A program made the translations under genes and the position numbers. A DNA stretch of 64,000 nt, taken from Escherichia coli. Its GTDB lineage: Bacteria > Pseudomonadota > Gammaproteobacteria > Enterobacterales > Enterobacteriaceae. Below the pieces are notes generated by a model that was not told the origin of the DNA, did not search any database, and saw only the letters and a list, made by a program, of their open reading frames with translations. This document shows, piece after piece, positions 29,920-56,062 of the stretch. Within the stretch, counting starts at the first letter, position 1, and each line of letters starts with the position of its first letter. Location of the stretch: NCBI RefSeq assembly GCF_002854065.1, contig NZ_CP024147.1; one strand, given 5' to 3'.

Positions 29920-31164
29920 TTAAATATTTTTTTGTATGGTGTCCGGAGATAAGGATAAACTCTCATGCCTAGATAATGGGCGTTCATCTTCTTGTGTATA
30001 TATAACTTTATAATCTTTTGGTAAGTCTTCAGCCAGGCGACCGGAGAATAAAGTTAGTTCGTCAGTAGCCATCGTAAATAACCAAGCTTCCTGATTTATA
30101 CTCTGGTTAACTCGTAAAATTCTACCCAGTACCTGCCTGAAATAGAGCTCAGTTTTAACAGCGCTTAGATGACAGCAAACCTGAAGTCGAGGGATGTCTG
30201 TACCCTCACTGATCATGCCAACACTGACAATCCACTCGGTAGTCGCATGTCGATAATGGTCAATTTTAGAAATGGCTCTTCTATCGTGATATGTCACAAT
30301 AGTTGTAGTTTGGCCAAACTCGTTTTCTAAAATACTTAGTAGTTCATATGCATGCTCGACTGATGAAGCAACAACCAGACCACCTGCGTCAGGGTTAAAT
30401 TTTCTAATTTCACGAAGTTTTTCACATCCAGATTTGATTACATACCTCATTGCATCAGGATACCAAATTATTGATTGATATGAAGTTACTGTCTCATTCA
30501 AAAAGTCTGCTATAGAACTATAATTTTTCATTGTTTCATCGGATGAGATAGCCAAATTGCTACTATTTACAAGGACAATTTTTGGCTTACGACAAACGTT
30601 ATCTGCAATAGCTTCTCTGAGACCGTATTCATAGTCACAGCTAACCACTCCATCCGAATCAGTGTAATTTGAAAACACTATTGGTGTATTGTCTGTTCGC
30701 CATGGAGTTCCTGTTAATGCCAATGTGTAACTGACACATTGTTGAACTTGAGACAGTATTTCCCCGCCCCAGACATTTGCATTTTCCAATGAATCACCAG
30801 AGCAATGATGTATTTCGTCGAAAACAGCCAACACACGATGACGCTTCAAAGAATCCCAGAAACGTTTATCGAAATACATCAGACTATGATAAGTATACAC
30901 CGCGCCAACCGCACCAAAGTCTCCATCAAAACTTCTTTCCAGAATACGGGAAAAATTACTTTTTATAGATGAGACTACCGCTGTTGAGGGGGCAAAGCAT
31001 ATAACCAGATCAACCATATCGAGCTCAAGCATTCTTTTGGTGACTTCGGCCGCCATTACAGTTTTTCCAGCACCAGGACTTGCAAGACATAGAAAGTGCT
31101 GTAATCCAGATTGATACTTTGTTAGCGCAGCGGCAACGCATTCTTTCTGCCAATCTCTCAACAT
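29920..31164 (-). CDS. compact SF2 (DEAD/DEAH-type) helicase, function unknown
   Basis: 414 aa, low GC; motif I SPGAGKT, motif II FDEIHH, motif III LTGTP, motif VI QVLGRILR; no extra nuclease domain. Confidence 0.7.
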   Translation of the reverse strand: MLRDWQKECVAAALTKYQSGLQHFLCLASPGAGKTVMAAEVTKRMLELDMVDLVICFAPSTAVVSSIKSNFSRILERSFDGDFGAVGAVYTYHSLMYFDKRFWDSLKRHRVLAVFDEIHHCSGDSLENANVWGGEILSQVQQCVSYTLALTGTPWRTDNTPIVFSNYTDSDGVVSCDYEYGLREAIADNVCRKPKIVLVNSSNLAISSDETMKNYSSIADFLNETVTSYQSIIWYPDAMRYVIKSGCEKLREIRKFNPDAGGLVVASSVEHAYELLSILENEFGQTTTIVTYHDRRAISKIDHYRHATTEWIVSVGMISEGTDIPRLQVCCHLSAVKTELYFRQVLGRILRVNQSINQEAWLFTMATDELTLFSGRLAEDLPKDYKVIYTQEDERPLSRHESLSLSPDTIQKNI

Positions 31165-31280
31165 ACTCGATGCTCATCACTATGTTGACTAGACTGGCCC
31201 CCTGAATCTCCAGACAACCAATATCACTTAAATAAGTGATAGTCTTAATACTAGTTTTTAGACTAGTCATTGGAGAACAG

Positions 31281-31646
31281 ATGATTGATGTCTTAGGGCC
31301 GGAGAAACGCAGACGGCGTACCACACAGGAAAAGATCGCAATTGTTCAGCAGAGCTTTGAACCGGGGATGACGGTCTCCCTCGTTGCCCGGCAACATGGT
31401 GTAGCAGCCAGCCAGTTATTTCTCTGGCGTAAGCAATACCAGGAAGGAAGTCTTACTGCTGTCGCCGCCGGAGAACAGGTTGTTCCTGCCTCTGAACTTG
31501 CTGCCGCCATGAAGCAGATTAAAGAACTCCAGCGCCTGCTCGGCAAGAAAACGATGGAAAATGAACTCCTCAAAGAAGCCGTTGAATATGGACGGGCAAA
31601 AAAGTGGATAGCGCACGCGCCCTTATTGCCCGGGGATGGGGAGTAA
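31281..31646 (+). CDS. insC: IS2 transposase OrfA (InsC)
   Basis: Product [30 protein letters not shown]... HTH protein. Confidence 0.85.
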
Positions 31647-32509
31647 GCTTAGTCAGCCGTTGTCTCCGGGTGTCGCGTGCGCAGTTGCACGTCATTCTCA
31701 GACGAACCGATGACTGGATGGATGGCCGCCGCAGTCGTCACACTGATGATACGGATGTGCTTCTCCGTATACACCATGTTATCGGAGAGCTGCCCACGTA
31801 TGGTTATCGTCGGGTATGGGCGCTGCTTCGCAGACAGGCAGAACTTGATGGTATGCCTGCGATCAATGCCAAACGTGTTTACCGGATCATGCGCCAGAAT
31901 GCGCTGTTGCTTGAGCGAAAACCTGCTGTACCGCCATCGAAACGGGCACATACAGGCAGAGTGGCCGTGAAAGAAAGCAATCAGCGATGGTGCTCTGACG
32001 GGTTCGAGTTCTGCTGTGATAACGGAGAGAGACTGCGTGTCACGTTCGCGCTGGACTGCTGTGATCGTGAGGCACTGCACTGGGCGGTCACTACCGGCGG
32101 CTTCAACAGTGAAACAGTACAGGACGTCATGCTGGGAGCGGTGGAACGCCGCTTCGGCAACGATCTTCCGTCGTCTCCAGTGGAGTGGCTGACGGATAAT
32201 GGTTCATGCTACCGGGCTAATGAAACACGCCAGTTCGCCCGGATGTTGGGACTTGAACCGAAGAACACGGCGGTGCGGAGTCCGGAGAGTAACGGAATAG
32301 CAGAGAGCTTCGTGAAAACGATAAAGCGTGACTACATCAGTATCATGCCCAAACCAGACGGGTTAACGGCAGCAAAGAACCTTGCAGAGGCGTTCGAGCA
32401 TTATAACGAATGGCATCCGCATAGTGCGCTGGGTTATCGCTCGCCACGGGAATATCTGCGGCAGCGGGCTTGTAATGGGTTAAGTGATAACAGATGTCTG
32501 GAAATATAG
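31604..32509 (+). CDS. insD: IS2 transposase OrfB (InsD), DDE integrase-like
   Basis: 301-aa ORF in the frame overlapping insC 3-prime end, as expected for IS3-family frameshift expression. Confidence 0.85.
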
Positions 32510-33063
32510 GGGCAAATCCATTGACCAAGTACTTTTGTTAAAGCGGTAACTCTGCCAAGCAATTCTGCCGACTGATTTTTTGCCTGCTGATAAAGGTCCA
32601 TAAAACATATCTTCTTGGCTGGAAAACGTTCCATCAAAGATTGATATTCTTCTAGCTCGCCCAGAATCACAGCAAGTTTGGCTTCATGAATAACTTTTTC
32701 TTTTTCTATATCGACCAAGAAACGATCAGCCCCCGGTGCCGACGGTTTCATTTTTTCGGGCATAGCGATAAGCCGCGAATTCTTTGGCAACGCTCTTGGT
32801 ATGAAAATAGTTGAATGAAAACTTTCCGTTTTCTTATACACACTTCTGGACTTGCCACCACTACTCTCAATTTTATAGATGAAGCCCAGGGACTCTAACC
32901 GAAGAAGTTGTCGGTGAATGAATTTTCTAGCCTCAGTAACTTCTGCGTAGTCATCTGTAATCTTCAGCAAAGCATCCCTGAGATGGATAGCGCAGAACTC
33001 ATTAAAACCCATCTCAATCAATAACTTATACATATATGGATGCAACTTTACTGCAGATTTCAT
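32434..33063 (-). CDS. hypothetical protein with putative winged-helix region; native C-terminus displaced by IS2 (last 27 codons are IS2-encoded)
   Basis: ORF reads into IS2 at 32520; removing IS2 and one TTGAC copy restores ...VLGQHSDEHRVC-stop, ending 4 nt downstream of the helicase ATG. Confidence 0.55.
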
Positions 33064-33161
33064 TATAAAAAATCCAAAATAACAAACTTAGAATTGCTAA
33101 GTATACAGAAACCAACGAAACTTAGACAATCTCAGCACCCTAAGGCAATGATGATGAATAC

Positions 33162-33473
33162 GTGGCTCACCCAAACCCGATACCCGAGAGGCTCAAAGCG
33201 GCCAGAACAAAAGCTGGGATCACTCAGAAGGAATTGGGGATCCGAATTGGCATGGAACCCAGCTCGGCGAGTGGTCGTATGAACCATTATGAGAAAGGGA
33301 GACACACTCCTGACATTGATACCCTCAAGCGTATGGCTGATGAACTTGGGGTACCAATTAACTATTTCTTTTGCGAGAACGACATAACTGCAGAATTAGC
33401 ATGTCTGATAGCTAAAATGACTGAGCAGCAGCAGATTGAATTGATTGCTATGCTAAAGAAAAATCAATCTTAG
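33162..33473 (+). CDS. XRE-family helix-turn-helix transcriptional regulator
   Basis: 103 aa; HTH LKAARTKAGITQKELGIRIGMEPSSASGRMNHYEKG typical of Cro/C1-type regulators. Confidence 0.7.
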   Translation: MAHPNPIPERLKAARTKAGITQKELGIRIGMEPSSASGRMNHYEKGRHTPDIDTLKRMADELGVPINYFFCENDITAELACLIAKMTEQQQIELIAMLKKNQS

Positions 33474-33861
33474 ATTTTTCACAGAACTCATACCTGAATA
33501 ATATCAGGGTTTCTTAGATATCCTTGACCTGCGACGTATACGCCTCCTCGAAGGGTATCCGCAATTTCTTATCTCATGTATCAGCTACCACCCAAACCGA
33601 ATCTTCATCAGTTCCGGACGTCATGTAATAAACCATAATTCTGGAAATCAAGGAAGCAAATCTAATTGTGTAAATGACCCCGTTGTTTCAGTAATTGAGT
33701 AACATGCCATAAACGGGATTAATAAAGACTTCATTTTAATTTCAACGCCCTTATCAGCCTGAAGTAAAATATGACTTGCAGATCACGTGAATACCTAAGC
33801 TGGAAGAGTATCTTTTACTATTGCAGTCCAACGTGAGAAAACAACAAGTCAACAAGGATTC

Positions 33862-36474
33862 ATGATGCTCAGTAGCGAGTTTTTGCGCTTTTTTCAAACC
33901 TTAAACACAACAGAAGTCCCCAGTAATGTCAGGAAAATAGCGAATCTTGTGTGGGATAACCTAGATGATATAACCCCATTGGGCACTTCGCAGGGTCAGC
34001 GAGTCAGGCGCATTGTCTCTCTGGCACAGTCTGCATGGGATGCCCTCAGTACAGAAGTACAGCCACTACCAGAGCAGACCGCTGAACGCGTCTCCACGTT
34101 TAGTCGGCTGAGAAAGATATCTGTTGGACCATTTAGAGGGTTTGCAAAGCAAGAAGAATTTGATCTGGATTCACGTCTAGTGCTGATTTACGGCCCCAAT
34201 GGTACTGGGAAGTCAAGTTTCTGCGAAGCGCTTGAATATACATTACTGGGCAATGTGGCTGAGGCCGAAAGCAAGCGTTTCCGGAATCAAAACGACTATT
34301 TTAAAAATGCACATGTCAATCGGTTTTCTGTTCCAGAGATAATTGGTGTCGGAGATCATGGGCAGGATGTGTCGATTGAGAATAACGAAGCACAGTATCG
34401 CTTTTGCTTTGTTGAAAAAAATCGTATCGACAACTTTTCAAGAATCGCGGCTCTGGTCCCAACAAGGCAGACTGAACTTATCTCAACACTATTCGGGCTA
34501 GATAGTTTTAATGATTTTGTGCGAAATTTTACATCAGATATTGATGCCAGATACATCGATCTAACAGGCGTAAAAGCAGGTCAGTTGGCAGAAAAGCGCA
34601 AGTCTCTTCTGGCTGCACAGCAGCAATTGGCGACAGGTCAGGCTGCCCTGGAAGGGTTGGCATCAGAGGAACAGACACTGGCTTCTGTTTATCGTGAAGG
34701 CCTGTCTTACCAGCAGATGCTAGCTGAGTTAAAAGGGGATGAACAAAATATCGGAACCATCCGACAGCTTGAAACAGAGTTACAAACGCCACTTCCGAAT
34801 CAGAGTAGCCTGACATCTGCTATTTTGAACGATATAAGTAGCGCTGTTGAAACGGCACTTATAGATCTGGAAAGCAAGCAGAAGCAACTGGCAGAGGCAA
34901 GTCAGCAGGTTTCATATAAAAATTTATTTGAAGCAGTTGTCCAGTTACAGGGTACCAGCCCGGAACAATGCCCTGCATGCCATACCCCTCTTCAGCAAAC
35001 CGCCAAAAACCCCTACAGCCATGCCTGTGATGAATTGCTAAAGCTTGAGTTTCTGTCGACATTACAGGGAGAAATAACTCAGCTGGAAAAATTAATTGGC
35101 CAGTTGATGTACAGTGTTTCACAAGTAATCGGCACATGCTGTCAGTTTTTGCCACATGACAATGCTCTTGAAGTATTCCGAAATGAAAATGGCATCACTT
35201 TATGGCGTAATCTGCGGCAGCAAACAGGAGATGGCATAACTCCCTGGGCTCAGCTTGAAAAACAGGTGTGGCATCTGGAGGGAGAAGATAAAAAAATAGA
35301 GGAAGCAACTAAATTGCGAGAATCCCGTCAGCGGGATCTTGCGAGAATGCGTGAATCTGATCGCCAGATAACGATTTTGCAGACAAGAAGAGATACGATA
35401 GAAAAAACCATCTCTGCGGCTCAGTTGTTGATTGGCAACTTTGATACTGAAAACAGGCAGCTAATTGAAGAAGTTGCTCACGAAGAAGACATTGTAAGGA
35501 AAAACAAAGCAATTTCAGAAGCGTATTCCCGGTTCGTTTTACAGCTGAACGCCTATAAAGAGGGATTACCTCAGAGACTTGTAGCGAATCTTGGGGATCA
35601 CATTGTCACTCTCTACAACGCATTTAACCGTAATGACCCCCCGGGAGAAAAGCTAGCAGGTATCAAACTACCTCTGCTGCAGAATCAGCGACTGGAAGTA
35701 GCGTTTCAGAATAATCCAACGCAACTATTCGATGCCCTGCATGTACTTAGTGAGGGGCATGTACGCTGTATAGGGCTGGCTATTTTGTTGGCAAAAAACA
35801 TTAATGAACAGTGTCCACTTTTGATATTTGATGACCCGGTCAATGCTATTGATGACGATCACAGAGAATCGATTCGGAGAACGTTGTTTGAAGATGCTTT
35901 CTTTGCTGAAAAACAAATCATTCTGGCCTGCCATGGAGAGGAATTCTTCAAAGACATCCAGAATTTATTGCCAGCGCCGGTTGCCGCACAGTCCAAGACT
36001 TTCAGCTTCTTACCGCGTCTTGACGAATTGCATATCCGCGTAGATTTTAACTGCGCTCCCAGGAACTATATTATTTCTGCACGAGGGCATTATGAGCGTA
36101 ATGAGATTCGGGAGGCGCTTGCAAAATGCAGACAGTCACTTGAATCGTTGATGAAGGGGAGAGTCTGGCGATATGTAAATAAATATGGTGATGGTAATCT
36201 TAGTCTCAAGCTAAGGTCAGCAACGGCACCTATTGAGTTACGTAACTTGTCGGATCAATTGAAGAAACAGATCAATAAAGCTGAGTTCCGTGACCAAAAT
36301 AAAAACGCCGTATTCACACCAATTGATGTGTTAACTGGGCTAAGTGGAGAATCACGAGAATGGCGCTATCTAAATAAAGGTACGCATGAGGAAGACGGCA
36401 GGGCTGAGTTTGATCGAGCAACAGTAGAAACCATGATTTCTGCCCTTGAGGCGCTCGATCAGGCTGTGAGTTAA
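33862..36474 (+). CDS. SMC/Rad50/RloC-like ABC ATPase with central CxxC hook and uncharacterised C-terminal domain
   Basis: 870 aa; Walker A LIYGPNGTGKSS, about 500 aa Q/E/L-rich coiled-coil with EQCPACH midway, signature-like LSEGHVRCIGLA, Walker B/D-loop LLIFDDPVNAIDDDH, H-loop ILACHGEEF, then about 170 aa of unknown function. Confidence 0.65.
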   Translation: MMLSSEFLRFFQTLNTTEVPSNVRKIANLVWDNLDDITPLGTSQGQRVRRIVSLAQSAWDALSTEVQPLPEQTAERVSTFSRLRKISVGPFRGFAKQEEFDLDSRLVLIYGPNGTGKSSFCEALEYTLLGNVAEAESKRFRNQNDYFKNAHVNRFSVPEIIGVGDHGQDVSIENNEAQYRFCFVEKNRIDNFSRIAALVPTRQTELISTLFGLDSFNDFVRNFTSDIDARYIDLTGVKAGQLAEKRKSLLAAQQQLATGQAALEGLASEEQTLASVYREGLSYQQMLAELKGDEQNIGTIRQLETELQTPLPNQSSLTSAILNDISSAVETALIDLESKQKQLAEASQQVSYKNLFEAVVQLQGTSPEQCPACHTPLQQTAKNPYSHACDELLKLEFLSTLQGEITQLEKLIGQLMYSVSQVIGTCCQFLPHDNALEVFRNENGITLWRNLRQQTGDGITPWAQLEKQVWHLEGEDKKIEEATKLRESRQRDLARMRESDRQITILQTRRDTIEKTISAAQLLIGNFDTENRQLIEEVAHEEDIVRKNKAISEAYSRFVLQLNAYKEGLPQRLVANLGDHIVTLYNAFNRNDPPGEKLAGIKLPLLQNQRLEVAFQNNPTQLFDALHVLSEGHVRCIGLAILLAKNINEQCPLLIFDDPVNAIDDDHRESIRRTLFEDAFFAEKQIILACHGEEFFKDIQNLLPAPVAAQSKTFSFLPRLDELHIRVDFNCAPRNYIISARGHYERNEIREALAKCRQSLESLMKGRVWRYVNKYGDGNLSLKLRSATAPIELRNLSDQLKKQINKAEFRDQNKNAVFTPIDVLTGLSGESREWRYLNKGTHEEDGRAEFDRATVETMISALEALDQAVS

Positions 36475-36607
36475 TATATGTAAAGTGGTCTATAAAATTG
36501 GCCACAACATGAGAATTACTGTTCGTTGGTTCCTGGCACAGAGCGTCTGTCAGATTTAGTTTAGCTCTGTGTCATACCAGTGGTAGCTCAAGTCGCGGCT
36601 AATGCAA

Positions 36608-37336
36608 TTAATCACTGAATACCAACGAATCTAATACACCTTGTCCACTATGAACTCCTCCTTCAACTGACTCTGCTGATTTGCTACGGATCAAATACCC
36701 AGCAAAACTGTGATCAGCGCTAGATGCATTGTTACCTATCTGGACGGAGAACATTCCTAGTTCGCTGACCAGATCAGTAACCTGATATAACTCCCCTTTA
36801 CGGACAACCAGAGAAGGTGTAGCTCGCGGGACAGGATGTATCCGACGCATGAACGACCAGGATTGATATTGCAGCGGGTCAAGTCTTGCCAGTTTTAACT
36901 GGATATCAGAGCCAAACAGACAATGCCCACCCCCTTCGCCCTGGTTTTTGAGAACCCATGAATCAGAAGGAGACTCTTTTACAATGCTGATTGTATCAGG
37001 GCTAACAGGAAGCATTTCGCCCAACACCATTTTTATGATATCAACCTCTTCCGGCTTCAGTCCAAAAGCAATCAGTTCATCGCACCCCAAATGAGAGAGC
37101 AACATTTGTACTCGCTTACTTGTCGCAAGTTGCTGAGCGACTGTTGCATTCACCGCAACTCGGTGCTGCTCAATCAATACTCGCGTGGCCATTAGCGTCT
37201 GGCAACACTCCTTCTCATTGAGACTGGCGGCTTCATAATCTGAGTATTGATATCCGGCACGTAAGTAAACAGAAGTAGTATGGGTGTATGAACTTGTCAT
37301 TGTTTTGACATTTATCAAATATATTCGATTATGCAT
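36608..37336 (-). CDS. hypothetical cysteine-containing protein, divergent from arsR
   Basis: 242-aa ORF (alternative start at 37300); no motif recognised. Confidence 0.4.
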   Translation of the reverse strand: MHNRIYLINVKTMTSSYTHTTSVYLRAGYQYSDYEAASLNEKECCQTLMATRVLIEQHRVAVNATVAQQLATSKRVQMLLSHLGCDELIAFGLKPEEVDIIKMVLGEMLPVSPDTISIVKESPSDSWVLKNQGEGGGHCLFGSDIQLKLARLDPLQYQSWSFMRRIHPVPRATPSLVVRKGELYQVTDLVSELGMFSVQIGNNASSADHSFAGYLIRSKSAESVEGGVHSGQGVLDSLVFSD

Positions 37337-37393
37337 ATGTGTTGTTGATTTTCATCTCCGCAGGAGATATCGTTACCTAAACGAACAGGAGGA

Positions 37394-37747
37394 ATGATGT
37401 CGCTTACTTCCCTACAACTCTTTAAGAATCTGTCTGATGAAACACGTCTGGGTATTGTTCTCATACTCAGAACTATGGGGGAGTTGTGCGTATGTGATCT
37501 TTGCACTGCACTTGATCAATCACAGCCTAAGATCTCCCGGCATCTGGCTATGTTGCGAGAAAGTGGGATTTTGCTTGATAGTAAACACGGTAAATGGGTT
37601 CATTACCGGTTATCCCCACACATTCCTTCATGGGCTGCACAGATTATTGAGCAGGCCTGGTTAAGCCAACAGGACGATCTTCAGGCCATCGCCCGTAAAC
37701 TGGCTTCAGTCAACTGCACTAACAGCAGTAAGGCTATTTGTATTTAA
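37394..37747 (+). CDS. arsR: arsenite-responsive repressor ArsR
   Basis: HTH plus As(III)-binding ELCVCDLC motif. Confidence 0.9.
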   Translation: MMSLTSLQLFKNLSDETRLGIVLILRTMGELCVCDLCTALDQSQPKISRHLAMLRESGILLDSKHGKWVHYRLSPHIPSWAAQIIEQAWLSQQDDLQAIARKLASVNCTNSSKAICI

Positions 37748-37787
37748 AAATTTGCCTGAATATATATGATTTCCCACATATGAGGTA

Positions 37788-38156
37788 TTGAGAATGAAAA
37801 CGCTAGCGGTATTCGACCCGGCAATGTGTTGTAGCACCGGTGTCTGCGGTACTGATGTCGATCAGGCTCTGGTTGATTTTTCCGCGGATGTGCAATGGCT
37901 GAAACAACGAGGTGTTCAGGTAGATCGTTTCAATCTGGCACAGCAACCGATGAGCTTTGTCCAGAACGAGAAAGTTAAAGCATTTATTGAGGCTTCTGGT
38001 GCGGAAGGGCTGCCATTACTGTTACTGGATGGCGAAACAGTGATGGCCGGGCGTTATCCGAAACGGGCTGAACTTGCACGGTGGTTTGGAATTCCGCTGG
38101 AGAAAGTAGGATTAGCGCCTTCAGGCTGCTGCGGTGGTAATACTTCTTGTTGTTAA
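37788..38156 (+). CDS. arsD: arsenic metallochaperone/regulator ArsD
   Basis: N-terminal MCCSTGVCG (Cys12/13/18) and C-terminal CCGGNTSCC. Confidence 0.9.
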   Translation: MRMKTLAVFDPAMCCSTGVCGTDVDQALVDFSADVQWLKQRGVQVDRFNLAQQPMSFVQNEKVKAFIEASGAEGLPLLLLDGETVMAGRYPKRAELARWFGIPLEKVGLAPSGCCGGNTSCC

Positions 38157-38173
38157 GTATGTCAGGAGGACAT

Positions 38174-39925
38174 ATGAAATTCTTACAGAACATCCCCCCT
38201 TATCTGTTTTTTACTGGTAAAGGAGGCGTTGGTAAAACCTCTATTTCCTGCGCCACGGCGATCCGTCTGGCAGAACAGGGTAAACGAGTGCTGCTGGTCA
38301 GTACCGATCCGGCCTCAAACGTAGGCCAGGTCTTTGGCCAGGTTATTGGCAATACTATTCAGCCAATAGCCACTGTTCCTGGATTGTCGGCACTTGAGAT
38401 TGATCCTCAGGCCGCTGCGCAACAGTACCGGGCCAGAATCGTTGACCCTATTAAAGGTGTCCTGCCTGATGACGTCGTTAGCAGCATCAACGAACAACTG
38501 TCTGGTGCATGCACAACAGAGATTGCGGCTTTTGATGAGTTTACCGGATTACTGACAGACGCCTCTTTGCTGACCCAGTTTGACCATATCATCTTTGATA
38601 CCGCGCCAACCGGCCATACTATTCGCCTTCTCCAGTTGCCAGGCGCCTGGAGCAGCTTTATTGACAGCAATCCCGAGGGCGCATCCTGCCTCGGCCCGAT
38701 GGCGGGGCTGGAAAAACAGCGTGAACAGTATGCCCATGCCGTTGAAGCACTGTCCGACCCAGCGCGTACCCGCCTGGTTTTAGTTGCCAGACTGCAAAAA
38801 TCCACCCTGCAAGAAGTCGCCCGAACTCATTTAGAACTCGCCGCAATTGGCCTTAAAAATCAGTACTTGGTCATTAATGGCGTTCTGCCCAAAACTGAAG
38901 CGGCAAACGATACACTGGCTGCGGCTATATGGGACCGTGAACAGGAGGCGCTGGCCAATCTTCCTTCTGACCTTTCCGGTCTGCCAACTGACACGTTATT
39001 CCTCCAACCACTCAATATGGTCGGCGTGGCTGCATTAAGTGGGCTTCTCTCCTCTCAGCCTGAGGCAGCATCATCTTCTGAAGAATACATTCAGCAACGA
39101 CCTGAAATTCCGTCGCTCTCAGCGTTAGTCGATGATATTGCCCGTAACGAACATGGTCTGATAATGCTAATGGGCAAAGGCGGTGTGGGGAAAACCACGA
39201 TGGCGGCAGCCATTGCCGTCAGACTGGCCGAAATGGGATTTGATGTCCATCTGACCACCTCAGATCCAGCAGCACACCTCAGCACAACCCTGAACGGTAG
39301 CCTTAACAATCTGCAGGTCAGTAGAATCGATCCTCACGAGGAAACAGAACGCTATCGTCAGCATGTTCTTGATACCAAGGGTGGAGAACTGGATGAAGCG
39401 GGTAAACGCCTGCTGGAAGAAGATTTACGCTCTCCTTGTACCGAAGAGATTGCGGTCTTCCAGGCCTTTTCACGGGTGATTCGTGAAGCGGGTAAGCGCT
39501 TCGTGGTCATGGATACGGCACCCACCGGGCATACCCTACTGCTGCTGGATGCCACCGGGGCGTATCACCGCGAAATTGCTAAGAAAATGGGCGATAAAGG
39601 CCATTTCACCACGCCAATGATGCAGCTTCAGGACCCGGAGCGAACCAAAGTGTTACTGGTCACGCTGCCGGAAACCACGCCCGTGCTTGAGGCGGCAAAT
39701 TTGCAGGCCGACCTTGAACGCGCAGGGATTCATCCCTGGGGCTGGATTATCAATAACAGCCTTTCCATTGCGGATACCCGTTCGCCGCTGCTTCGTCTGC
39801 GGGCGCAACAGGAACTTCCGCAGATCGAGAGTGTTAAACTCCAGCATGCCAGTCGCGTAGCTCTTGTTCCTGTACTGGCGTCAGAACCGACCGGCATCGA
39901 CAAACTCAAACAACTCGCTGGTTAA
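38174..39925 (+). CDS. arsA: arsenite pump ATPase ArsA
   Basis: Start [23 protein letters not shown]; duplicated P-loops (GKGGVGKTS / GKGGVGKTT) and DTAPTGH motifs. Confidence 0.9.
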
Positions 39926-39972
39926 TTATTGTCATTACTCGGGGCAGCTTTGCTGCCCTTTCGGGAGGTTAT

Positions 39973-41262
39973 ATGTTACTGGCAGGAGCCATTTTTATCC
40001 TGACCATCGTGTTGGTTATCTGGCAGCCAAAGGGATTAGGCATTGGCTGGAGCGCCACGCTGGGTGCCGTACTGGCTCTGGCATCGGGTGTGATTCATAT
40101 CGCCGATATTCCGGTGGTGTGGAATATCGTCTGGAACGCCACGGCCACCTTTATTGCCGTCATTATCATCAGTCTGTTGCTGGATGAGTCCGGCTTTTTT
40201 GAATGGGCTGCACTGCACGTTTCCCGCTGGGGCAATGGGCGTGGACGTCTGCTATTTACCTATATTGTTCTGCTCGGCGCGGCGGTGGCGGCATTGTTTG
40301 CCAACGATGGCGCGGCGTTAATTCTGACGCCGATCGTTATCGCCATGCTACTGGCGCTGGGATTCAGTAAAAGCACCACGCTGGCTTTCGTGATGGCCGC
40401 AGGGTTTATTGCCGATACCGCCAGCTTGCCACTTATCGTATCGAACCTGGTCAATATCGTTTCGGCTGATTTCTTCAAACTGGGATTCACGGAGTATGCG
40501 TCAGTTATGGTGCCGGTGGATATTGCCGCCATTGTCGCCACGCTGGTGATGCTGCATCTTTTTTTCCGCAAAGATATCCCGCCCACTTATGAGCTGGCGC
40601 GACTGAAAGAACCCGCAAAAGCCATCAAAGATCCTGCGACGTTCAGAACCGGCTGGGTTGTGCTCCTCCTTCTGCTGGTCGGTTTTTTTGTCCTTGAGCC
40701 GATGGGGATCCCTGTGAGTGCGATTGCGGCAGTGGGGGCGGCAATCCTGTTTGCGGTGGCCAAAAAAGGTCATGGTATTAACACCGGTAAAGTGCTGCGC
40801 GGCGCGCCCTGGCAGATCGTGATCTTCTCACTGGGGATGTATCTGGTGGTATACGGGTTGCGTAACGCCGGTCTGACGGATTATCTCTCTGACGTGCTGA
40901 ACGTACTGGCAGATAAAGGACTGTGGGCCGCGACGCTGGGGACAGGATTCCTGACTGCATTCCTCTCTTCTATCATGAACAATATGCCGACCGTACTGGT
41001 TGGCGCACTGTCGATTGATGGCAGCACCGCGACCGGCGTTATCAAAGAAGCGATGATTTATGCCAACGTCATTGGCTGCGATCTGGGGCCGAAAATCACC
41101 CCTATTGGTAGCCTGGCGACACTGCTCTGGCTGCACGTGCTTTCACAGAAGAATATGACAATCTCGTGGGGATACTACTTCCGCACCGGGATTATCATGA
41201 CCCTGCCTGTGCTGTTTGTAACGCTGGCTGCGCTGGCGCTACGTCTCTCTGTCACTTTGTAA
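39973..41262 (+). CDS. arsB: arsenite efflux permease ArsB
   Basis: 429-aa polytopic membrane protein between arsA and arsC. Confidence 0.9.
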
Positions 41263-41274
41263 TGAGATTCTGAT

Positions 41275-41700
41275 ATGAGCAACATCACTATTTATCACAA
41301 CCCAGCCTGCGGCACCTCGCGTAATACGCTGGAGATGATCCGCAACAGCGGTACCGAGCCGACCATTATTCTTTACCTTGAGAACCCACCTTCGAGGGAT
41401 GAATTGGTCAAACTCATTGCCGATATGGGTATTTCAGTACGAGCGCTGCTGCGTAAAAACGTTGAGCCTTACGAGCAACTGGGTCTTGCAGAAGATAAAT
41501 TTACTGACGATCAGCTCATCGACTTTATGTTGCAACACCCAATTCTGATTAACCGTCCGATCGTGGTTACGCCGCTGGGAACCAGACTGTGCCGTCCTTC
41601 TGAAGTGGTTCTGGATATCCTGCAGGATGCGCAGAAAGGGGCTTTCGCTAAGGAAGACGGTGAAAAGGTCGTTGATGAAGCAGGAAAACGGCTGAAATAA
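41275..41700 (+). CDS. arsC: arsenate reductase ArsC (glutaredoxin-coupled type)
   Basis: 141 aa, catalytic HNPACGTSRN motif. Confidence 0.9.
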   Translation: MSNITIYHNPACGTSRNTLEMIRNSGTEPTIILYLENPPSRDELVKLIADMGISVRALLRKNVEPYEQLGLAEDKFTDDQLIDFMLQHPILINRPIVVTPLGTRLCRPSEVVLDILQDAQKGAFAKEDGEKVVDEAGKRLK

Positions 41701-41734: not shown

Positions 41735-42271
41735 TCAGAGCATCATGCCTGAATCCGATGGTAACGTGCTGTTCCCTTCGCCCAGATTTCGTTGCAGCAA
41801 CACTGTGTCAAGCCAACGACCATGCTTGAAGCCAATATTTTTCAGCGTACCAATCTCAGTAAATCCAACCTGCTGATGGACTTTCAGCGAACCTTGATTA
41901 TTGCTATCGCCGACAATAGCAATCATCTGCCGATAGCCGTGAGTTTCTGCCCAGGCAATGACGTAGCGCAGCAACGCTTTTCCTGTCCCCTGACGCTGTG
42001 CGTCCGGGTGAATATAAATCGAATCTTCGAGAGTGTGGCGGTAGGCGTAGCGTTCACGGTAACGAGTGAGATAACAATACCCGATAACCTTTTCTTCCTC
42101 TAACGCGACAACCCACGGTAGCGCCTGATTGCGGATCTTTTTCAGGCGGGTAAGCATCTCGTGGGTATCCGGAGGTTCAGTTTCAAAGCTGGCGGTACCG
42201 TGAAGAACATGATGGGCGTAGATATCGCGTATAGCGGGGATGTGCTTTTCTTCTGCGTTAACGATTTTCAT
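41735..42271 (-). CDS. GNAT family N-acetyltransferase (phosphinothricin acetyltransferase-like; possible ArsN-type)
   Basis: 178 aa; acetyl-CoA binding region QRQGTGKALL; located between two ars operons. Confidence 0.65.
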   Translation of the reverse strand: MKIVNAEEKHIPAIRDIYAHHVLHGTASFETEPPDTHEMLTRLKKIRNQALPWVVALEEEKVIGYCYLTRYRERYAYRHTLEDSIYIHPDAQRQGTGKALLRYVIAWAETHGYRQMIAIVGDSNNQGSLKVHQQVGFTEIGTLKNIGFKHGRWLDTVLLQRNLGEGNSTLPSDSGMML

Positions 42272-42483
42272 TGTTCTGTTCCCGTTGGCATCTTTTTCAA
42301 GGTTACTTGAAAATCCTGAGGAAAGGTAAATACAAAAGCTTATGACCCAATAAGCAGGCTAATCTTCAATCCCATCTTTTGTTTTCATTCATGCAGGGAG
42401 ACAAATATGTGCTTCCAGTATCCTTATTTTTTATGTTACCTTTTCCGTTATGTCTAAAATGACATAACGGAAAAGGTAAACCC

Positions 42484-43308
42484 ATGTCCTCAGAATCAAA
42501 ACGGAACGGAAAAGGTTTTTTATCAGGCACGTTAATCGGTGCTTTAGGCGGCTTAATTGGCCTCGGTGGCGCTGAGTTCCGCCTTCCCGTCCTGATGGGT
42601 AGTTTCAAAATGCCGACGCTTGAAGCGGTTATTTTTAACAAAGCGATGAGCCTTACTGTTGTCGCTGTTGCTTTGATATTCCGCACAAAATCCATCGCCG
42701 TCGACCAGCTGTTTGCTCATCTTGATATTGTCATCAATTTGCTGGCCGGGAGCCTTATAGGTGCATGGTGGGCAGCAGGAAGAGCCATAAAAATGTCCCG
42801 TATTTGGCTGGACAGAACCATTCTGCTCCTGCTTGTTATCCTGTCATTCGTCATGTTTTCAGAAGCATTGATGCCTCTGCATGATAGCTCCGCTGGATTA
42901 TTCCAGCCCGGAATCGCGACCATTATTGCGGGTGTTATTGCGGGTGTTATTGCGGGTTTCTTCATCGGGAATGTTGCTGCTTTGCTGGGTGTTGCAGGGG
43001 GAGAGCTCCTGATACCAACTATCGTTATCCTTTTTGGGGCTGACATTAAACTGGCTGGCAGTTTGTCACTCATGATCAGTTTACCGACGATGATTGTGGG
43101 GTTCTCTCGCTACACTAATGCAGATGCTTTCCAGATCCTGAGAAAAGAGAAAAAACTTTTTGTGTGGATGGTCATCGGTTCCGTTATAGGTGCCGCTATT
43201 GGGGGCCTTATGCTCGGTATGTTCCCGGTAAGAGTACTTATGACTCTGTTAGGCGCGGTACTTCTTATTTCCGCGATCAAAACCTTTAAGCATACCCGGC
43301 AAAGATAA
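42484..43308 (+). CDS. TauE/SafE (TSUP) family membrane transporter
   Basis: 274-aa, 4+4 TM repeat architecture with GxxGG motifs (GALGGLIGLGGAEF, AALLGVAGGELL). Confidence 0.7.
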   Translation: MSSESKRNGKGFLSGTLIGALGGLIGLGGAEFRLPVLMGSFKMPTLEAVIFNKAMSLTVVAVALIFRTKSIAVDQLFAHLDIVINLLAGSLIGAWWAAGRAIKMSRIWLDRTILLLLVILSFVMFSEALMPLHDSSAGLFQPGIATIIAGVIAGVIAGFFIGNVAALLGVAGGELLIPTIVILFGADIKLAGSLSLMISLPTMIVGFSRYTNADAFQILRKEKKLFVWMVIGSVIGAAIGGLMLGMFPVRVLMTLLGAVLLISAIKTFKHTRQR

Positions 43309-43370
43309 TAGCCGTTTACGCTTTGGACTATTCCGCATTACAGAGAAAATGATTTCGAAAAGGTATCAGA

Positions 43371-43739
43371 ATGAAAAAGAATCCCCTTAAATCAAACTTA
43401 ATCTTAGTCAGACCGAGGATCTATATTAACGACAACATCTCGCTGGGGCCGGGGAAGGTTGACCTTTTAAGGGCGATTGATGGCTTTCACTCTCTTTCTG
43501 CGGCAGCTAAAGATTTGGGGATACCTTATAAAAAAGCATGGCTCTTAATTGACACTTTGAATAAAGGGATTGGTCAGCCAGTTGTAACCACTTCCACTGG
43601 TGGTAACAAGGGCGGTGGTACAGTTCTGACGCCATTGGGGCGTAGCCTGCTGATCTGGTATGACCAGGCCGAGGCCCACCTCAATGAGCAATCTCAGCAA
43701 CAGTTAATCGAACTTGAAAAGATTCTTTTTGGAAAATGA
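43371..43739 (+). CDS. ModE N-terminal-domain-like winged-helix regulator
   Basis: LGPGKVDLLRAIDGFHSLSAAAKDLGIPYKKAW...GGNKGGGTVLTPLG matches the ModE-type HTH pattern. Confidence 0.6.
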   Translation: MKKNPLKSNLILVRPRIYINDNISLGPGKVDLLRAIDGFHSLSAAAKDLGIPYKKAWLLIDTLNKGIGQPVVTTSTGGNKGGGTVLTPLGRSLLIWYDQAEAHLNEQSQQQLIELEKILFGK

Positions 43740-43784
43740 CAGAGACCTTTGTTATCCATCGGGAAAATAGAGTGACAGCAATGC

Positions 43785-43810
43785 ATGAAGGGGGCTAATG
43801 CCCCCTTCAT
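43785..43810. terminator. 11-bp perfect palindrome, near-copy of the hairpin at 41703
   Basis: ATGAAGGGGGC taat GCCCCCTTCAT between convergent ModE-like gene and arsA2. Confidence 0.55.
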
Positions 43811-43812
43811 TA

Positions 43813-45570
43813 TTACTTCGCCATTTCTTCCAGCAGGTCAATACCAACCGGCTCTTCGCTCTGTAGCGCTGTTAATGCAATACGCTTTGCATACTGCTCT
43901 TCCACATCAGAGATGAGAGGCAGCTCGCGGTTAGCTCTGGTCTTCAGGAAAGGTGAAGACGGCTCAGCAGCTGCCAGGCTGTTATTCACAACCCATGCCC
44001 ACGGCTCAATGCCAGCCCGACGCAGATCCTGCTGCAGGTTAGCGGCTTCCAGTACAGGTGTCGTTTCGGCAAGCGTCACGATAATCACCTTCGTCTTCTC
44101 CGGGTCCTGCAATTGCATCATTGGCGTCATCACATGGTCATGTGTTTGCCCCATCTGGCGCACCATTTCCCGGTGATAGGCTCCAGTCGCATCCAGTAGC
44201 AGAAGTGTGTGACCCGTTGGCGCGGTGTCCATAATGACAAAATGATCGTCTGCCTCTTTGATTATCCGCGAGAATGCCTGGAAGACGGCGATCTCTTCAG
44301 TACATGGTGAGCGGAGATCTTCTTCCAGCACCGCCAGCCCCTCAGCGTCTAATCCTTTGCCCTGATTCTCCAGTACAAAACGGCGATAACGCTCTGTCTC
44401 CACCTTCGGATCGATACGGCTGACCTGCAGATTTGGCAGCGAGCCATCCAGCGTGTAAGACAGATGTGCTGCCGGATCGGACGTGGTCAGATGGACTTTA
44501 TGACCGCGTTTTGCCAGCGATACCGCGACCGATGCTGCAACAGTCGTTTTGCCCACGCCGCCTTTCCCCATCGTCATTACCAGCCCTTTGCCTGTCAGAC
44601 TGAGTTCATCCACTAACGAGGAAAGTTTCGGTAAATCCAGAGCATTTAGCGTTGTATTGGAGAGAGACAGTGGCGCTTTGCTCTCTGTTAATAACTCTCG
44701 CAGGGCTTCCAGACCGACCAGATTAAATGGCTTCAGAGACAGCTGCGAGCGGGGAAGATTAACCAGATTATCAGGCATTGCCTGTAATGCTTTTTCTTCC
44801 CGAGCCAGAATACTTTGCGCCAGTGGATCATTTTCACCGGCAAACGGTGGCAGCACACCATTAATGGCAAGGTGTTGATGCTGCAAACCAATAGCAGAAA
44901 GCTCATCGTGCGTATGAGAAACCTCTTTCAGCGTTGAAGCCTGAGCTCGGGCAACCAGCACTAAGCGTGTGAGAGCTGCGTCGGACAGCGCTTTAACCGC
45001 ATCGGAGTACTGGTGCTGTTGTTTCTCAAGCCCTACCAGAGGTCCAAGGTTTGCAGCGGCATCAGGGTTCGCTTCGAGATAACCGCTCCAGGCTCCCGGC
45101 AATTCAAGCATGCGGATGGTGTGACCGGTTGGCGCGGTATCAAATACGATATGGTCATATTTTCCCCGCAGCTCATGATTGGTCAGCAGACCAGTAAACT
45201 CATCAAACGCAGCGATTTCCGTGGTGCATGAGCCGGAAAGCTGCTCTTCAATGCTGCTGACCACATCGGCTGGCATCAGCCCGCGAACAGGGTCGAGCAC
45301 ACGGTCACGATAGGCTTGCGCTGCAGCCATCGGATCAACTTCCATCGCGGCAAGATTTTCTACAGTACTGATATCTGTGATTCGGTGGCCGATAGTCTGG
45401 CTAAATACCTGGCCGACATTGGAAGCCGGATCGGTACTCACCAGAAGCGTTCTCTTACCCTGATCGGCCAGCCATACTGCAGTAGCACAGGCCAGGGATG
45501 TCTTACCCACTCCACCTTTACCAGTGAAGAAGATGAACGGGGGAATGTCTTTTAAAAATGGCATATTCAT
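43813..45570 (-). CDS. arsA: second arsenite pump ATPase ArsA paralogue
   Basis: Start [25 protein letters not shown]; duplicated P-loops and DTAPTGH motifs; diverged from the copy at 38174. Confidence 0.85.
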   Translation of the reverse strand: MNMPFLKDIPPFIFFTGKGGVGKTSLACATAVWLADQGKRTLLVSTDPASNVGQVFSQTIGHRITDISTVENLAAMEVDPMAAAQAYRDRVLDPVRGLMPADVVSSIEEQLSGSCTTEIAAFDEFTGLLTNHELRGKYDHIVFDTAPTGHTIRMLELPGAWSGYLEANPDAAANLGPLVGLEKQQHQYSDAVKALSDAALTRLVLVARAQASTLKEVSHTHDELSAIGLQHQHLAINGVLPPFAGENDPLAQSILAREEKALQAMPDNLVNLPRSQLSLKPFNLVGLEALRELLTESKAPLSLSNTTLNALDLPKLSSLVDELSLTGKGLVMTMGKGGVGKTTVAASVAVSLAKRGHKVHLTTSDPAAHLSYTLDGSLPNLQVSRIDPKVETERYRRFVLENQGKGLDAEGLAVLEEDLRSPCTEEIAVFQAFSRIIKEADDHFVIMDTAPTGHTLLLLDATGAYHREMVRQMGQTHDHVMTPMMQLQDPEKTKVIIVTLAETTPVLEAANLQQDLRRAGIEPWAWVVNNSLAAAEPSSPFLKTRANRELPLISDVEEQYAKRIALTALQSEEPVGIDLLEEMAK

Positions 45571-45590
45571 CAGTGATAGCTCCTCTGGAA

Positions 45591-45953
45591 TTAAGGCATA
45601 CGTGGAATGCTGCAGCAACGCGGTTGCGTACTGTCTTCACTCCAGTCCTGAGTTAGCGGAATATCTGCCCAACGGGCGATATCTTCACGAGTCGGCAGTT
45701 TGCCTGCCATCACCAGCTTGCCGTCGAGCAAGGTGACAGGGAGGGATTCCATCCCTGATGTGTTCATAAACTCTTTGATTACAGGGGTATTCAGGAACTG
45801 CTGCGGGTTTTTCGCAAGGCTGTAGCGCTGAATATCAACGCCATTCTTTTTCGCCCATTCGGCGCTGGCATTCCATTTGACGGCTTCGTCGCTCACCACA
45901 ACGCTGCTGGTTGCGCAGCAGCCTGCTGCTTCAAAGATCTCAATTTTTGACAT
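45591..45953 (-). CDS. arsD: divergent ArsD-like metallochaperone
   Basis: 120 aa; vicinal Cys pair (AAGCCATS) at the ArsD Cys12/13 position but lacks Cys18; C-terminal CC. Confidence 0.7.
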   Translation of the reverse strand: MSKIEIFEAAGCCATSSVVVSDEAVKWNASAEWAKKNGVDIQRYSLAKNPQQFLNTPVIKEFMNTSGMESLPVTLLDGKLVMAGKLPTREDIARWADIPLTQDWSEDSTQPRCCSIPRMP

Positions 45954-46028
45954 GGATTGTTTACCTCAGTGTTTAGTCATTTGGCTTTACACTGAGGTAA
46001 ACGAAGGTGGTGGGAAAAAGATGCGCGA

Positions 46029-46586
46029 TTAATTCATTTTTTTGTGGCAGCAGACAAAAGATGTGTCATCCGCCTCAATCTGGCAGAGTTCTGTCATCGT
46101 CTCTTTCAGGTGTTTTCTGGCCCGAAGTAGTCGGGATTTAAACGCTGTAAGCGTGATTCCCCATTCATCGGCCAGGGACTGCTGGGGACGCCGGTTAAGG
46201 TCGGACTCTTCAATCAACCACCGCTCATCTTCGGGTAAAGCCTGTAATGTTTCAGGCAGGCAAATATCCAGTGTTGAGATTGCATCAAGGGATGCGTCTG
46301 TTAATAGGGCATCTTCTTCCAGCTCAACAAACGCCCTGGTGGTTCGGTACTCATCAATCAGCAGATTCCTTGCTACCCGATACAACCAGGCTCGCGGATT
46401 TTCCATCTCACAAAAAATGTCTGAATGGGCTCGGGCACGCAGGAAAAGGTCTTGCAGAAGGTCTGCTGCTTTTTCGCTATCGCCTGTCTTCGATATCAGA
46501 AAGCGAGAAAATTCGCCTTCATGCTGCCGCCAGAACACGCTCATACAGCTGTTGAATGCTGTTATGTCACTCATACTAACCTTCAA
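46029..46586 (-). CDS. sigma-70 family (ECF-like) RNA polymerase sigma factor with Cys-rich C-terminal tail
   Basis: Region 2-like [13 protein letters not shown]...[15 protein letters not shown] and region 4-like HTH; C-terminus [16 protein letters not shown]. Confidence 0.6.
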
Positions 46587-47293
46587 ATTTTGCTCTGATT
46601 AACCCGTCGGGAAAGTTCTTCTGCAGACTCTTTTCGTTCACTGTAGCGATCGACAAGATAGGCAGAATTTGCCCGGGTCAACAATGTAAACTTCATCAAT
46701 TCTTCCATCACATCCACGATGCGGTCGTAATATGGTGACGGTTTCATACGTCCATCGTCATCAAACTCCTGCCAGGCTTTTGCTACCGAGGACTGGTTCG
46801 GAATAGTGATCATTCTCATCCAACGACCAAGCACGCGCATCTGGTTGACTGTGTTGAATGACTGGGAACCTCCACACACTTGCATAACAGCCAGAGTTTT
46901 TCCCTGAGAAGGACGAACAGCACCTTCAGATAATGGTATCCAGTCAATTTGTGCCTTCATAATACCAGTCATCGCTCCGTGTCGTTCCGGAGAGCACCAC
47001 ACCATTCCTTCAGACCAGCGGACCAGTTCACGCAACTCCATAACTTTTGGATGTGACTCCGGTGCATCATCAGGAAGTGGAAGGCCAGATGGATTAAAAA
47101 TGCGGACTTCTGCGCCCATCGCAGTTAACAACCGACCAGCTTCCTCTGTCGCCAGTCGACTGTATGAGCGCTCACGAACTGAGCCATAAAGCATTAGTAT
47201 ACGAGGGGGGTGAGATATTGTCGGTATCCCCATTTTTTGCTCAGTTATTGCAGCATCAAATAAATCAGGAACTATATTATTTAGCTTATTCAT
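46583..47293 (-). CDS. arsH: ArsH, NADPH-dependent FMN reductase family
   Basis: 236 aa with [12 protein letters not shown] flavodoxin-like motif. Confidence 0.85.
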
Positions 47294-47391
47294 TTTTTAT
47301 TTTCCCTATAGATTCGGGATCTTAGTAGGATGGATTCAGACGGTTCGATGCAGCTTTCGTCAATCATGACAGTTATGAGTTTTTCGGTTAC

Positions 47392-47715
47392 TTATCCATT
47401 TTTGCCAGCGGGTTCCGTAACATCTGTTTTACTGTTTACACAGCACTCTTCACGTAAGAATTCGATGATAGCTTCCAGTATTTCGTATTGAGAGACGCAC
47501 ATGAGCGTTCGACTCTCCCGGTTTTGTGTGACGAGTCCTACTGATACTAAGGCTGAAATATGATGACTTAACGTTGATGAGGGAATGCCAAGCTGCTTTT
47601 GCAATTCACCTACAGGCAAACCTTGTTCTCCAGCTTTTACAAGATGTTTGAATATGAACAAACGGGTCGGGTGACCCAGCTCTTTTAGTGCTTTAGCTAC
47701 TTCTTCCAATTGCAT
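47392..47715 (-). CDS. arsR: ArsR/SmtB-family repressor (second ars regulator) with C-terminal vicinal cysteines
   Basis: 107 aa, HTH LPVGELQKQLGIPSSTLSHHISAL, C-terminal EECCVN. Confidence 0.75.
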   Translation of the reverse strand: MQLEEVAKALKELGHPTRLFIFKHLVKAGEQGLPVGELQKQLGIPSSTLSHHISALVSVGLVTQNRESRTLMCVSQYEILEAIIEFLREECCVNSKTDVTEPAGKNG

Positions 47716-47820
47716 GTGACAACCCTCTGTCTAATGATATTTCGATAATACCAGAAATATCTTGACCAGAATTATATTTCGATTATTCTAGAAATGTAGA
47801 TTTTGTCAAGAGGGTTTAGT

Positions 47821-55785: not shown

Positions 55786-55869
55786 TCAGTTCAGAAGCTG
55801 AAGCAGAAAGCGGATCAGTTCCAGCAGCGCAATTAACGCCCCAAGAACGATGATTGCTTTATCAATCAC
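55786..55869 (-). CDS. dinQ: DinQ small membrane toxin (27-aa peptide; longer in-frame ATG at 55914)
   Basis: Minus-strand translation gives VIDKAIIVLGALIALLELIRFLLQLLN-stop from GTG 55869; below the size cutoff of the ORF track. Confidence 0.75.
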   Translation of the reverse strand: MIDKAIIVLGALIALLELIRFLLQLLN

Positions 55870-56020: not shown

Positions 56021-56062
56021 GCGTTTATGCGCATTGCCAGAGTGAAAATGCCTCAGAGCTAA

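Follow-up and report, generated by a model that had tools for sequence, protein, structure and literature searches.

The 64-kb window analysed here, a stretch of 64,000 nucleotides from the Escherichia coli contig NZ_CP024147.1, raises the question of what kind of gene, if any, lies back to back with the arsenic resistance operon arsRDABC. An earlier note, made from the sequence alone, had pointed to a 242-aa open reading frame (ORF) in this place, had left it unassigned, and had considered it a possible new arsenic accessory gene. The ORF itself is present as claimed: it occupies positions 36608–37336 on the minus strand, begins with an ATG, encodes four cysteines (C44, C45, C85 and C139), and is divergent from arsR, the start of which at 37394/37397 is 57–60 bp away. 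RefSeq annotates a 230-aa version (36608–37300) under the name "glutathione synthetase" (WP_234696402.1) with no pseudogene flag, and gene callers disagree on the start for the same DNA, giving products of 242, 230, 194, 165 or 135 aa. A 165-aa cluster member (P0045) was considered as an independent truncation and rejected, because it is the same DNA with another start call. PADLOC returned no match for the ORF, and a role in a defence system was rejected on that ground; a search of positions 36000–38000 against Rfam at E ≤ 1 found no non-coding RNA.

The earlier note had recognised no family motif in the ORF, and in this it was mistaken, as the profile HMM search that it had proposed returns clear matches to the eukaryotic-type glutathione synthetase (GS) family (PF03917, PF03199 and TIGR01986). 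Residues 36–239 match PF03917, the ATP-binding domain of eukaryotic glutathione synthase, with E = 4e-28 and 98.7 bits against a cutoff of 25, so that the frame is not a product of chance; the match covers only profile positions 168–362 of 363. The match to PF03199 (21.1 bits, cutoff 20.9) is likewise confined to the end of the profile (positions 64–107 of 107), and that to the NCBIfam model TIGR01986 reaches 103.4 bits over positions 263–471 of 473, far under the cutoff of 329.8. The ORF thus attains neither the equivalog cutoff nor the full-length architecture of GS. Intact relatives cover PF03917 from position 4 to 362 and PF03199 from position 3 to 107, and the alignment of bacterial relatives of 478 aa with human GS spans both proteins over their whole length (2HGS, E = 2e-38). 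Residues 22–242 of the ORF correspond to the C-terminal 221 residues (258–478) of such a 478-aa GS, with amino-acid identities of 89% to the Citrobacter 478-aa proteins and approximately 98% to the protein of Salmonella Kirkee; the DNA of the GS part is 91% identical to the GS genes of Citrobacter plasmids. Both Pfam domains are interrupted by the truncation, which does not fall at a domain boundary. By these alignments, the ORF is the C-terminal 46% of a eukaryotic-type GS.

The closest intact relative of the locus is a contig of Salmonella serovar Kirkee (L005), which shares approximately 98.7% DNA identity with the window on both flanks of the truncation point. L005 encodes the one full-length 478-aa member of the ORF's 90%-identity protein cluster (P0051, EDT6359225.1). 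On L005, the order arsB-arsA-arsD-arsR is followed by divergent genes for TtrB-, TtrC- and TtrA-like proteins and a 193-aa hypothetical protein, next by a dual-specificity phosphatase and a 123-aa ArsR/SmtB-family regulator on the strand opposite to the Ttr-like cluster, and then by an intact GS gene divergent from the 123-aa regulator, with a CBASS system beyond. The Ttr-like proteins, comprising a TtrB-like 4Fe-4S protein, a TtrC-like membrane protein and a 1,008-aa TtrA-like molybdopterin oxidoreductase, all score under the NCBIfam equivalog cutoffs. BLAST aligned window positions 40254–37263 with L005 1–2992 (98.76% identity) and window positions 37272–36533 with L005 10773–11513 (98.65% identity). 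Relative to L005, the window therefore lacks an interval of 7,790 bp, which holds the TtrB/C/A-like genes, the gene for the 193-aa hypothetical protein, the phosphatase gene, the gene for the ArsR-family HTH regulator and the 5' half of the GS gene. The hexamer CTGTTT, which marks the junction in the window, is present at both parental sites (L005 2983–2988 on the ars side and 10773–10778 on the GS side), and the same breakpoint is obtained when the window is compared with a Citrobacter plasmid (L002) on the GS side and with a Salmonella IncHI2 plasmid (L004) on the ars side. Beyond position 36533 the defence genes differ, with CBASS in L005/L006 versus an 870-aa SMC/LmuB-like ATPase in the window. 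An intact orthologue, collinear flanks and a discrete missing interval, as expected of a deletion-derived pseudogene, are all found at this locus. The partner to which the GS remnant is fused is the upstream region of arsRDABC. Coordinates of the features are collected in Table 1.

Table 1. Features of the arsR–GS remnant junction and its surroundings, in window coordinates.
Feature	Position	Strand	Basis or remark
Native GS 3' flank, 75 bp retained	36533..36607	-	BLAST block ends at 36533
GS 3' remnant, codons 258-478 and stop	36608..37272	-	98.65% DNA identity to L005 10773-11437
Deletion junction, 6-bp microhomology CTGTTT (AAACAG on +)	37267..37272	-	Base-by-base comparison of the window with both L005 sides
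First 21 codons (MHNRIYLINVKTMTSSYTHTT), including ATG 37336 and ATG 37300	37273..37336	-	Former arsR/ttrB-like intergenic DNA, not GS
arsR promoter-like site TTGACA-16-GATTAT, 10/12 matches	37305..37332	+	Consensus scans; conserved in L004 and L005
Weak leftward promoter-like site ATGAAA-16-CATAAT, 9/12 matches	37328..37355	-	Consensus scans
arsR (ArsR/SmtB repressor, PF01022), first gene of arsRDABC	37397..37747	+	Pfam HTH_5 E=2.6e-16; RefSeq CDS
arsD, arsA, arsB, arsC	37794..41700	+	RefSeq annotation; 98.8% identity to L005 ars block

These comparisons suggest a simple history. The ancestral island would have carried arsRDABC, a divergent TtrBCA-like molybdoenzyme operon, the phosphatase, the ArsR/SmtB regulator and, divergent from the latter, an intact 478-aa GS. 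A single deletion of 7,790 bp between the two CTGTTT hexamers eliminated the phosphatase and regulator genes along with the TtrBCA-like operon, and it stripped GS of its promoter, its ribosome-binding site and codons 1–257. The same event joined the upstream region of arsR in frame to GS codon 258, leaving two fortuitous intergenic ATGs at the head of a 242-codon (or 230-codon) frame. The deletion itself probably arose by microhomology-mediated illegitimate recombination. In our assessment the ORF is, with high probability, what is left of a mobile eukaryotic-type GS gene, a chimera without function, and we infer that no useful protein is made from it.

Two other accounts of the missing half can be set against the same data. 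Were the junction an artefact of assembly or annotation, the real genome would carry an intact gene; truncated calls are indeed common in draft assemblies, and nothing more specific speaks for this account. Against it, the identical junction and ORF are found in a complete E. coli chromosome (strain CUWW06, NZ_CP182139.1, a 100% match to the window) and in more than 875 independent assembly blocks, with an unchanging context, and we give the artefact practically no weight. Alternatively, the enzyme could be split, with the N-terminal half encoded elsewhere and the two halves assembling into an active GS. Some homologues are indeed called as two adjacent ORFs, of 170 and 302 aa (L008), 159 and 325 aa (L009), or 407 and 89 aa (L010–L012), but these are adjacent frame breaks at other positions and not dispersed halves. 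A tblastn search with GS residues 1–257 found nothing in the 64-kb window, as did searches of the window with each of the other deleted proteins, and none of 5,426 complete E. coli genomes, this strain included, contained the 5' half of GS at an identity of at least 90%. As the breakpoint moreover fits a simple deletion relative to the intact relative, a split enzyme is extremely improbable.

A deletion remnant might nevertheless have become a gene in its new position, and the start signals bear on this directly. The same two ATGs that head the frame in the window are present in L005 (at 2919 and 2955), where they fall within an intergenic region of 183 bp and head a frame of just 34 codons that ends in TAA. 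No Shine-Dalgarno sequence was found before ATG 37336 or ATG 37300, whereas the native starts are preceded by GAGGG (GS), GAAGGG (ttrB-like) and AGGAGG (arsR). The promoter-like site of arsR falls inside codons 2–11 of the ORF on the opposite strand. The earlier note had described the ORF as sharing the arsR promoter region; this holds only in the physical sense, as those codons overlie the −35 and −10 elements of arsR, and the adjacency was made by the deletion. The weak leftward site is the sole leftward match in the intact intergenic region, and the number of matches does not exceed the expectation from shuffled sequence. If real, it may once have driven the TtrBCA-like operon and been orphaned by the deletion; its −10 element overlaps ATG 37336, which would therefore not be transcribed from it. 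On the sequence, the shared intergenic region does not appear to provide the ORF with a functional promoter and ribosome-binding site of its own.

It is from this leftward site that the principal competing explanation starts, namely that transcription from the orphaned promoter, in the ArsR-bound intergenic region, still yields the truncated protein, which has taken on a new stand-alone nucleotide- or thiol/As(III)-binding role as an ars-co-regulated accessory. The site (37355–37328) is retained and lies upstream of ATG 37300, so transcription is possible. Against this, the promoter match does not rise above chance, both 5' ATGs lack a Shine-Dalgarno sequence, and a transcript from the site would begin only after ATG 37336.

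The residues that the fragment has kept and lost speak to the same question. Eight positions of human GS (R125, E144, N146, S149, S151, E214, N216 and Q220), which on the 2HGS literature we take to bind Mg2+ and gamma-Glu-Cys, map to residues 112–214 of the 478-aa relative and are absent from the ORF because they all precede residue 258. Human-GS positions that the ORF retains are R267/Y270, K305, K364, the E368-GGG loop, E425, R450/K452 and the A-loop; the ATP-side motifs in the fragment comprise K310, the K366/E370-GGG loop, R453/K455 and the A-loop. The segments ATSK, VLKNQGEGGG, LIRSK and EGGVHSGQG are all present and are conserved across the clade. Three clade-conserved cysteines are also retained: the vicinal C44–C45 pair is conserved in 21 of the 22 clade members, and the invariant cysteine in the glycine-rich loop is likewise still there. 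The retained ATP-binding motifs and cysteines speak for a co-opted fragment. In intact GS, it is the N-terminal half, missing here, that carries the dimer interface, two ligands of Mg2+ and the majority of the residues that bind gamma-glutamylcysteine, and a product that lacks this half is predicted to be unable to act as a glutathione synthetase.

Structure prediction, which the earlier note had also proposed, yields a poor model for the fragment alone, and that model leads back to the GS family. We modelled the fragment and the intact P0051 with AlphaFold2 using the same 22-sequence alignment. The fragment reached a mean pLDDT of 55.6, with residues 1–73 and 170–242 mostly below about 55 and only ORF residues ~80–165, a central lid-like segment, predicted with confidence (pLDDT 70–91), whereas the intact control gave a mean pLDDT of 81.1 and a pTM of 0.85. 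In blocks of ten residues, GS positions 277–306 and 407–478 scored 61–90 in the intact model versus 36–53 in the fragment. The best 27 PDB hits of a Foldseek search with the fragment model all belong to the eukaryotic GS family, and the comparison with 2HGS gave E = 1.3e-7 with a TM-score of 0.27 normalised to the target. The confidence of the central segment in isolation is compatible with a co-opted fragment; the truncation through both Pfam domains and the poor modelling of the flanking two thirds in the absence of the N-terminal half count against it. Taken together, the models support the view that the fragment is probably not an autonomous fold.

The distribution of the truncated form could be read as a sign of selection. 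The exact 242-aa sequence is found on 916 contigs and the 230-aa version on 327, from Salmonella and E. coli, and the layout is the same in every context examined: a ResIII helicase, a VspR-like protein, an HTH protein, the 870-aa SMC-like ATPase, the GS remnant, arsRDABC, GNAT, TauE and a second ars cluster. The island adjoins gor in both genera. Identity of this island with the Salmonella metal island SGI-3/SGI-4 was considered and rejected, as the latter has a TIGR03747 ICE membrane protein upstream of its arsR. The SGI-3/SGI-4 papers make no mention of a GS gene, and SGI-4, to which the available RNA-seq data refer, lacks this ORF.

An undisrupted frame in more than 1,200 assemblies would favour a co-opted fragment, and the ars linkage of the truncated form is constant, but the copies are essentially clonal, and for this reason an open frame in that many contigs says little about selection; near-identical copies are what a recent origin would leave. 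Natural isolates also carry disrupted versions of the remnant, namely a frameshift (P0052, 18 contigs) and IS3-family insertions near the 5' end (L021) and at the 3' end (L022), and only one missense variant was seen. Relative to the closest intact relative, the remnant differs by 3 synonymous and 5 nonsynonymous changes (omega 0.50, from 8 substitutions only), compared with an omega of 0.18 between intact GS genes and 0.20 for their C-terminal half; these counts are too small to separate 0.5 from 0.2, and the dN/dS comparison is suggestive and underpowered. Over the adjacent arsR, arsD and arsA, 29 synonymous and 4 nonsynonymous changes separate the window from the intact relative, and the substitutions in the remnant differ from those in the ars genes (Fisher p = 0.02) while being indistinguishable from those in intact GS. 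Together, these results suggest that the remnant is dispensable. Having weighed both sides, we regard an expressed and co-opted fragment as quite unlikely. Its most specific form, in which an ArsR-controlled leftward promoter drives translation from ATG 37300 or an internal Met to give an arsenite-inducible ATP- or As(III)-binding protein (through C44–C45 and C139), strikes us as less likely still; were it true, a deletion inside an arsenic island would have given birth to a gene.

If the window copy is a pseudogene, as we favour, the link to arsenic has to be sought in its parent. Intact GS homologues are ars-linked in five of the eight distinct contexts examined (L003, L005/L006, L008, L010–L012 and L019). 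Full-length 478-aa homologues occur in ars islands in divergent orientation to a regulator of the ArsR/SmtB family. On the Citrobacter arsenatis plasmid, GS is divergent from an HTH gene that is followed by an LMWP-type arsC and a phosphatase gene, beside a Ttr-like cluster. A chromosomal GS of 76% identity (L008) lies among LMWP arsC, GAPDH/MFS, Acr3, arsC and ArsP genes, metagenomic units combine an ArsR-family HTH, ArsP and a GS of 55% identity (L010–L012), and in Klebsiella sp. w6 (L019) GS is divergent from HTH-arsC-phosphatase-arsC-arsRDABC. As for the rest, the Vibrio lentus copy (L009) is not ars-linked, and two of the eight contexts are IS-scrambled (L002; L017/L018). A further GS lineage of ~81% identity is widespread on enterobacterial MDR plasmids, with 316 plasmid records; of 5,426 complete E. 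coli genomes, 172 have it. Both copies examined have the gene stranded between IS elements (IS26, ISEc52) and strAB.

Glutathione is the reductant for the Grx-coupled type of ArsC, which is the type encoded here, and an ars-linked GS is therefore a plausible accessory, in the form of the intact parent and not of the remnant. The intact bacterial clade of eukaryotic-type GS has clade-specific cysteines and altered substrate-site residues. The literature searched contained no functional study of an ars-linked eukaryotic-type GS. The only mention found is in a figure legend, by which a "glutathione synthetase" gene is coloured in a comparison of ars/arr modules from Shewanella and Aeromonas (PMC6429310).

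The arsenic connection that the earlier note had suspected has a real basis for the intact parent gene, which recurs in ars islands, and not for the window copy, which is a deletion remnant; as a new arsenic accessory gene this copy can no longer be upheld, having lost codons 1–257, the regulator, the promoter and the ribosome-binding site. The note had named homology to a housekeeping enzyme family together with a lack of conserved ars linkage as evidence that would speak against its proposal: the homology was found, and the linkage is present in the parents.

These results have consequences for annotation and for the history of the island. The appropriate label for the ORF is 5'-truncated pseudogene, in place of either an unknown arsenic gene or the working "glutathione synthetase" of RefSeq; its position beside arsR is accidental, the scar of a deletion. 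From that scar, the arsenic island next to gorA that is widespread in Salmonella and E. coli can be dated as derived from a larger one, in which a TtrBCA-like molybdoenzyme operon and a GS module regulated by ArsR were also present. Of more interest than the remnant is a lead beyond the window, namely the intact bacterial clade of eukaryotic-type GS that recurs in ars islands.

Among the closest known systems is eukaryotic-type GS itself (PF03917 plus PF03199, TIGR01986; human 2HGS and yeast 1M0W), to the C-terminal half of which ORF residues 22–242 are homologous; unlike these enzymes, the ORF has just 221 of 478 residues, and its first 21 residues are an unrelated translation of intergenic DNA. 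The intact genes of Citrobacter (WP_057102349.1 and WP_133085530.1) and Salmonella Kirkee (EDT6359225.1) represent the direct parent lineage. In contrast to the window copy, they encode 478 aa, have their own Shine-Dalgarno sequence and promoter, and are divergent from the gene of an ArsR-family regulator of 123 aa, behind which an LMWP-type arsC and a phosphatase gene are often found; nothing of all this remains in the window. With the accessory genes of ars operons (arsH, arsN, arsP, arsJ/gapdh, arsO and arsT/X), the intact parent shares the habit of a recurrent passenger of ars islands and an ArsR-family regulator, whereas the window ORF is a truncated copy without homology to these families. 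The ORF also resembles ordinary pseudogenes or chimeric ORFs generated by deletion in genomic islands, with which it shares a sharp microhomology breakpoint, the loss of its start signals, fusion to fortuitous ATGs, inconsistent start calls, and disruption by IS elements and a frameshift in natural isolates, although its frame, unlike theirs, is still open.

The 3' flank of the remnant eukaryotic-type glutathione synthetase (GS) gene is a swap point for defence genes. In the window, the genes downstream of GS include a ResIII/DEAD helicase gene and a VspR-like ORF, together with two that PADLOC matched, an HTH 'control protein' (E=5e-26) and an 870-aa ATPase of SMC/LmuB-like type (LmuB, E=3e-26). 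The equivalent site in the relatives L005 (Salmonella Kirkee) and L006 is occupied by a CBASS system (SAVED, SMODS, Cap2, JAB), and homology to them ends at window position 36533. The IS2 copy within this set, into whose end a 209-aa ORF extends, is absent from an otherwise identical Salmonella island (L013). The GS fragment itself is named 'glutathione synthetase' by RefSeq (PGAP) and bears no pseudogene flag, a label that may mislead automated metabolic or resistance annotation in the many Salmonella and E. coli assemblies with the fragment.

Related islands and plasmids (Salmonella IncHI2, Salmonella Kirkee and C. arsenatis) carry a TtrBCA-like molybdoenzyme operon as the divergent neighbor of arsR. 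The window lacks this operon, which was deleted at 37267-37272. Every TtrBCA-like subunit scores below the tetrathionate reductase equivalog cutoffs, and an arsenic-related substrate is conceivable.

Features and their coordinates
Feature	Sequence	Coordinates	Remark
Defence genes 3' of GS	window	29920-36474	
IS2 copy	window	31236-32509	between VspR-like ORF and helicase gene
209-aa ORF	window	32434-33063	
230-aa GS fragment	window	36608-37300	WP_234696402.1
ORF C139	window	36922-36920	
ORF C44-C45	window	about 37205-37200	vicinal Cys pair
Region downstream of island arsC	window	41735-48954	
Native arsRBC locus, degraded	window	55787-57485	downstream of dinQ
Native-locus arsC	window	56404-56772	
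TtrBCA-like operon	L003 (C. arsenatis plasmid)	13797 onward	
TtrBCA-like operon	L004 (Salmonella IncHI2 plasmid)	1144-5948	
TtrBCA-like operon	L005 (Salmonella Kirkee)	3045-8440	

The first genes after the island arsC encode a GNAT acetyltransferase that may be ArsN-like, an exporter of the TauE/SafE type and a small winged-HTH protein. Behind them lies a second ars cluster; it contains arsA2-arsD2, a gene of the sigma-70 (r2/r4) family, arsH and arsR2, and a permease gene is divergent from it. In a 76%-identical chromosomal island (L008) and in metagenomic ArsR-ArsP-GS units (L010-L012), GS too has a sigma70_r2/r4 gene as its neighbor, and the presence of such a gene in both settings marks it as a recurrent ars-island passenger. 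The strain has gained two island-borne ars clusters, and its native arsRBC locus is degraded: native arsR and most of arsB are lost, only the last ~15 codons of the latter being left, and the native arsC, 94% identical to the island ArsC, is cut by IS1 at residue 123.

Alignments A1/A2 (22 sequences), with Citrobacter, C. arsenatis, Salmonella Kirkee and Klebsiella sp. w6 relatives and GS copies lying among IS elements (L002, L003, L005, L017-L019), revealed systematic differences between canonical GS and the bacterial eukaryotic-type clade, whose intact members reach 238 bits where TIGR01986 sets its cutoff at 329.8. These differences may mean that the clade acts on another substrate or that its regulation responds to thiols or As(III); a literature search for a functional study of it found none. 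Of the 22 bacterial sequences, 21 have a vicinal Cys-Cys pair, located in a stretch across which human GS has a gap. The glycine-rich loop reads EGGGHC invariantly in the bacterial clade but EGGGNN in human GS, and the positions of human S149/S151 are A/G ('IAAGM').
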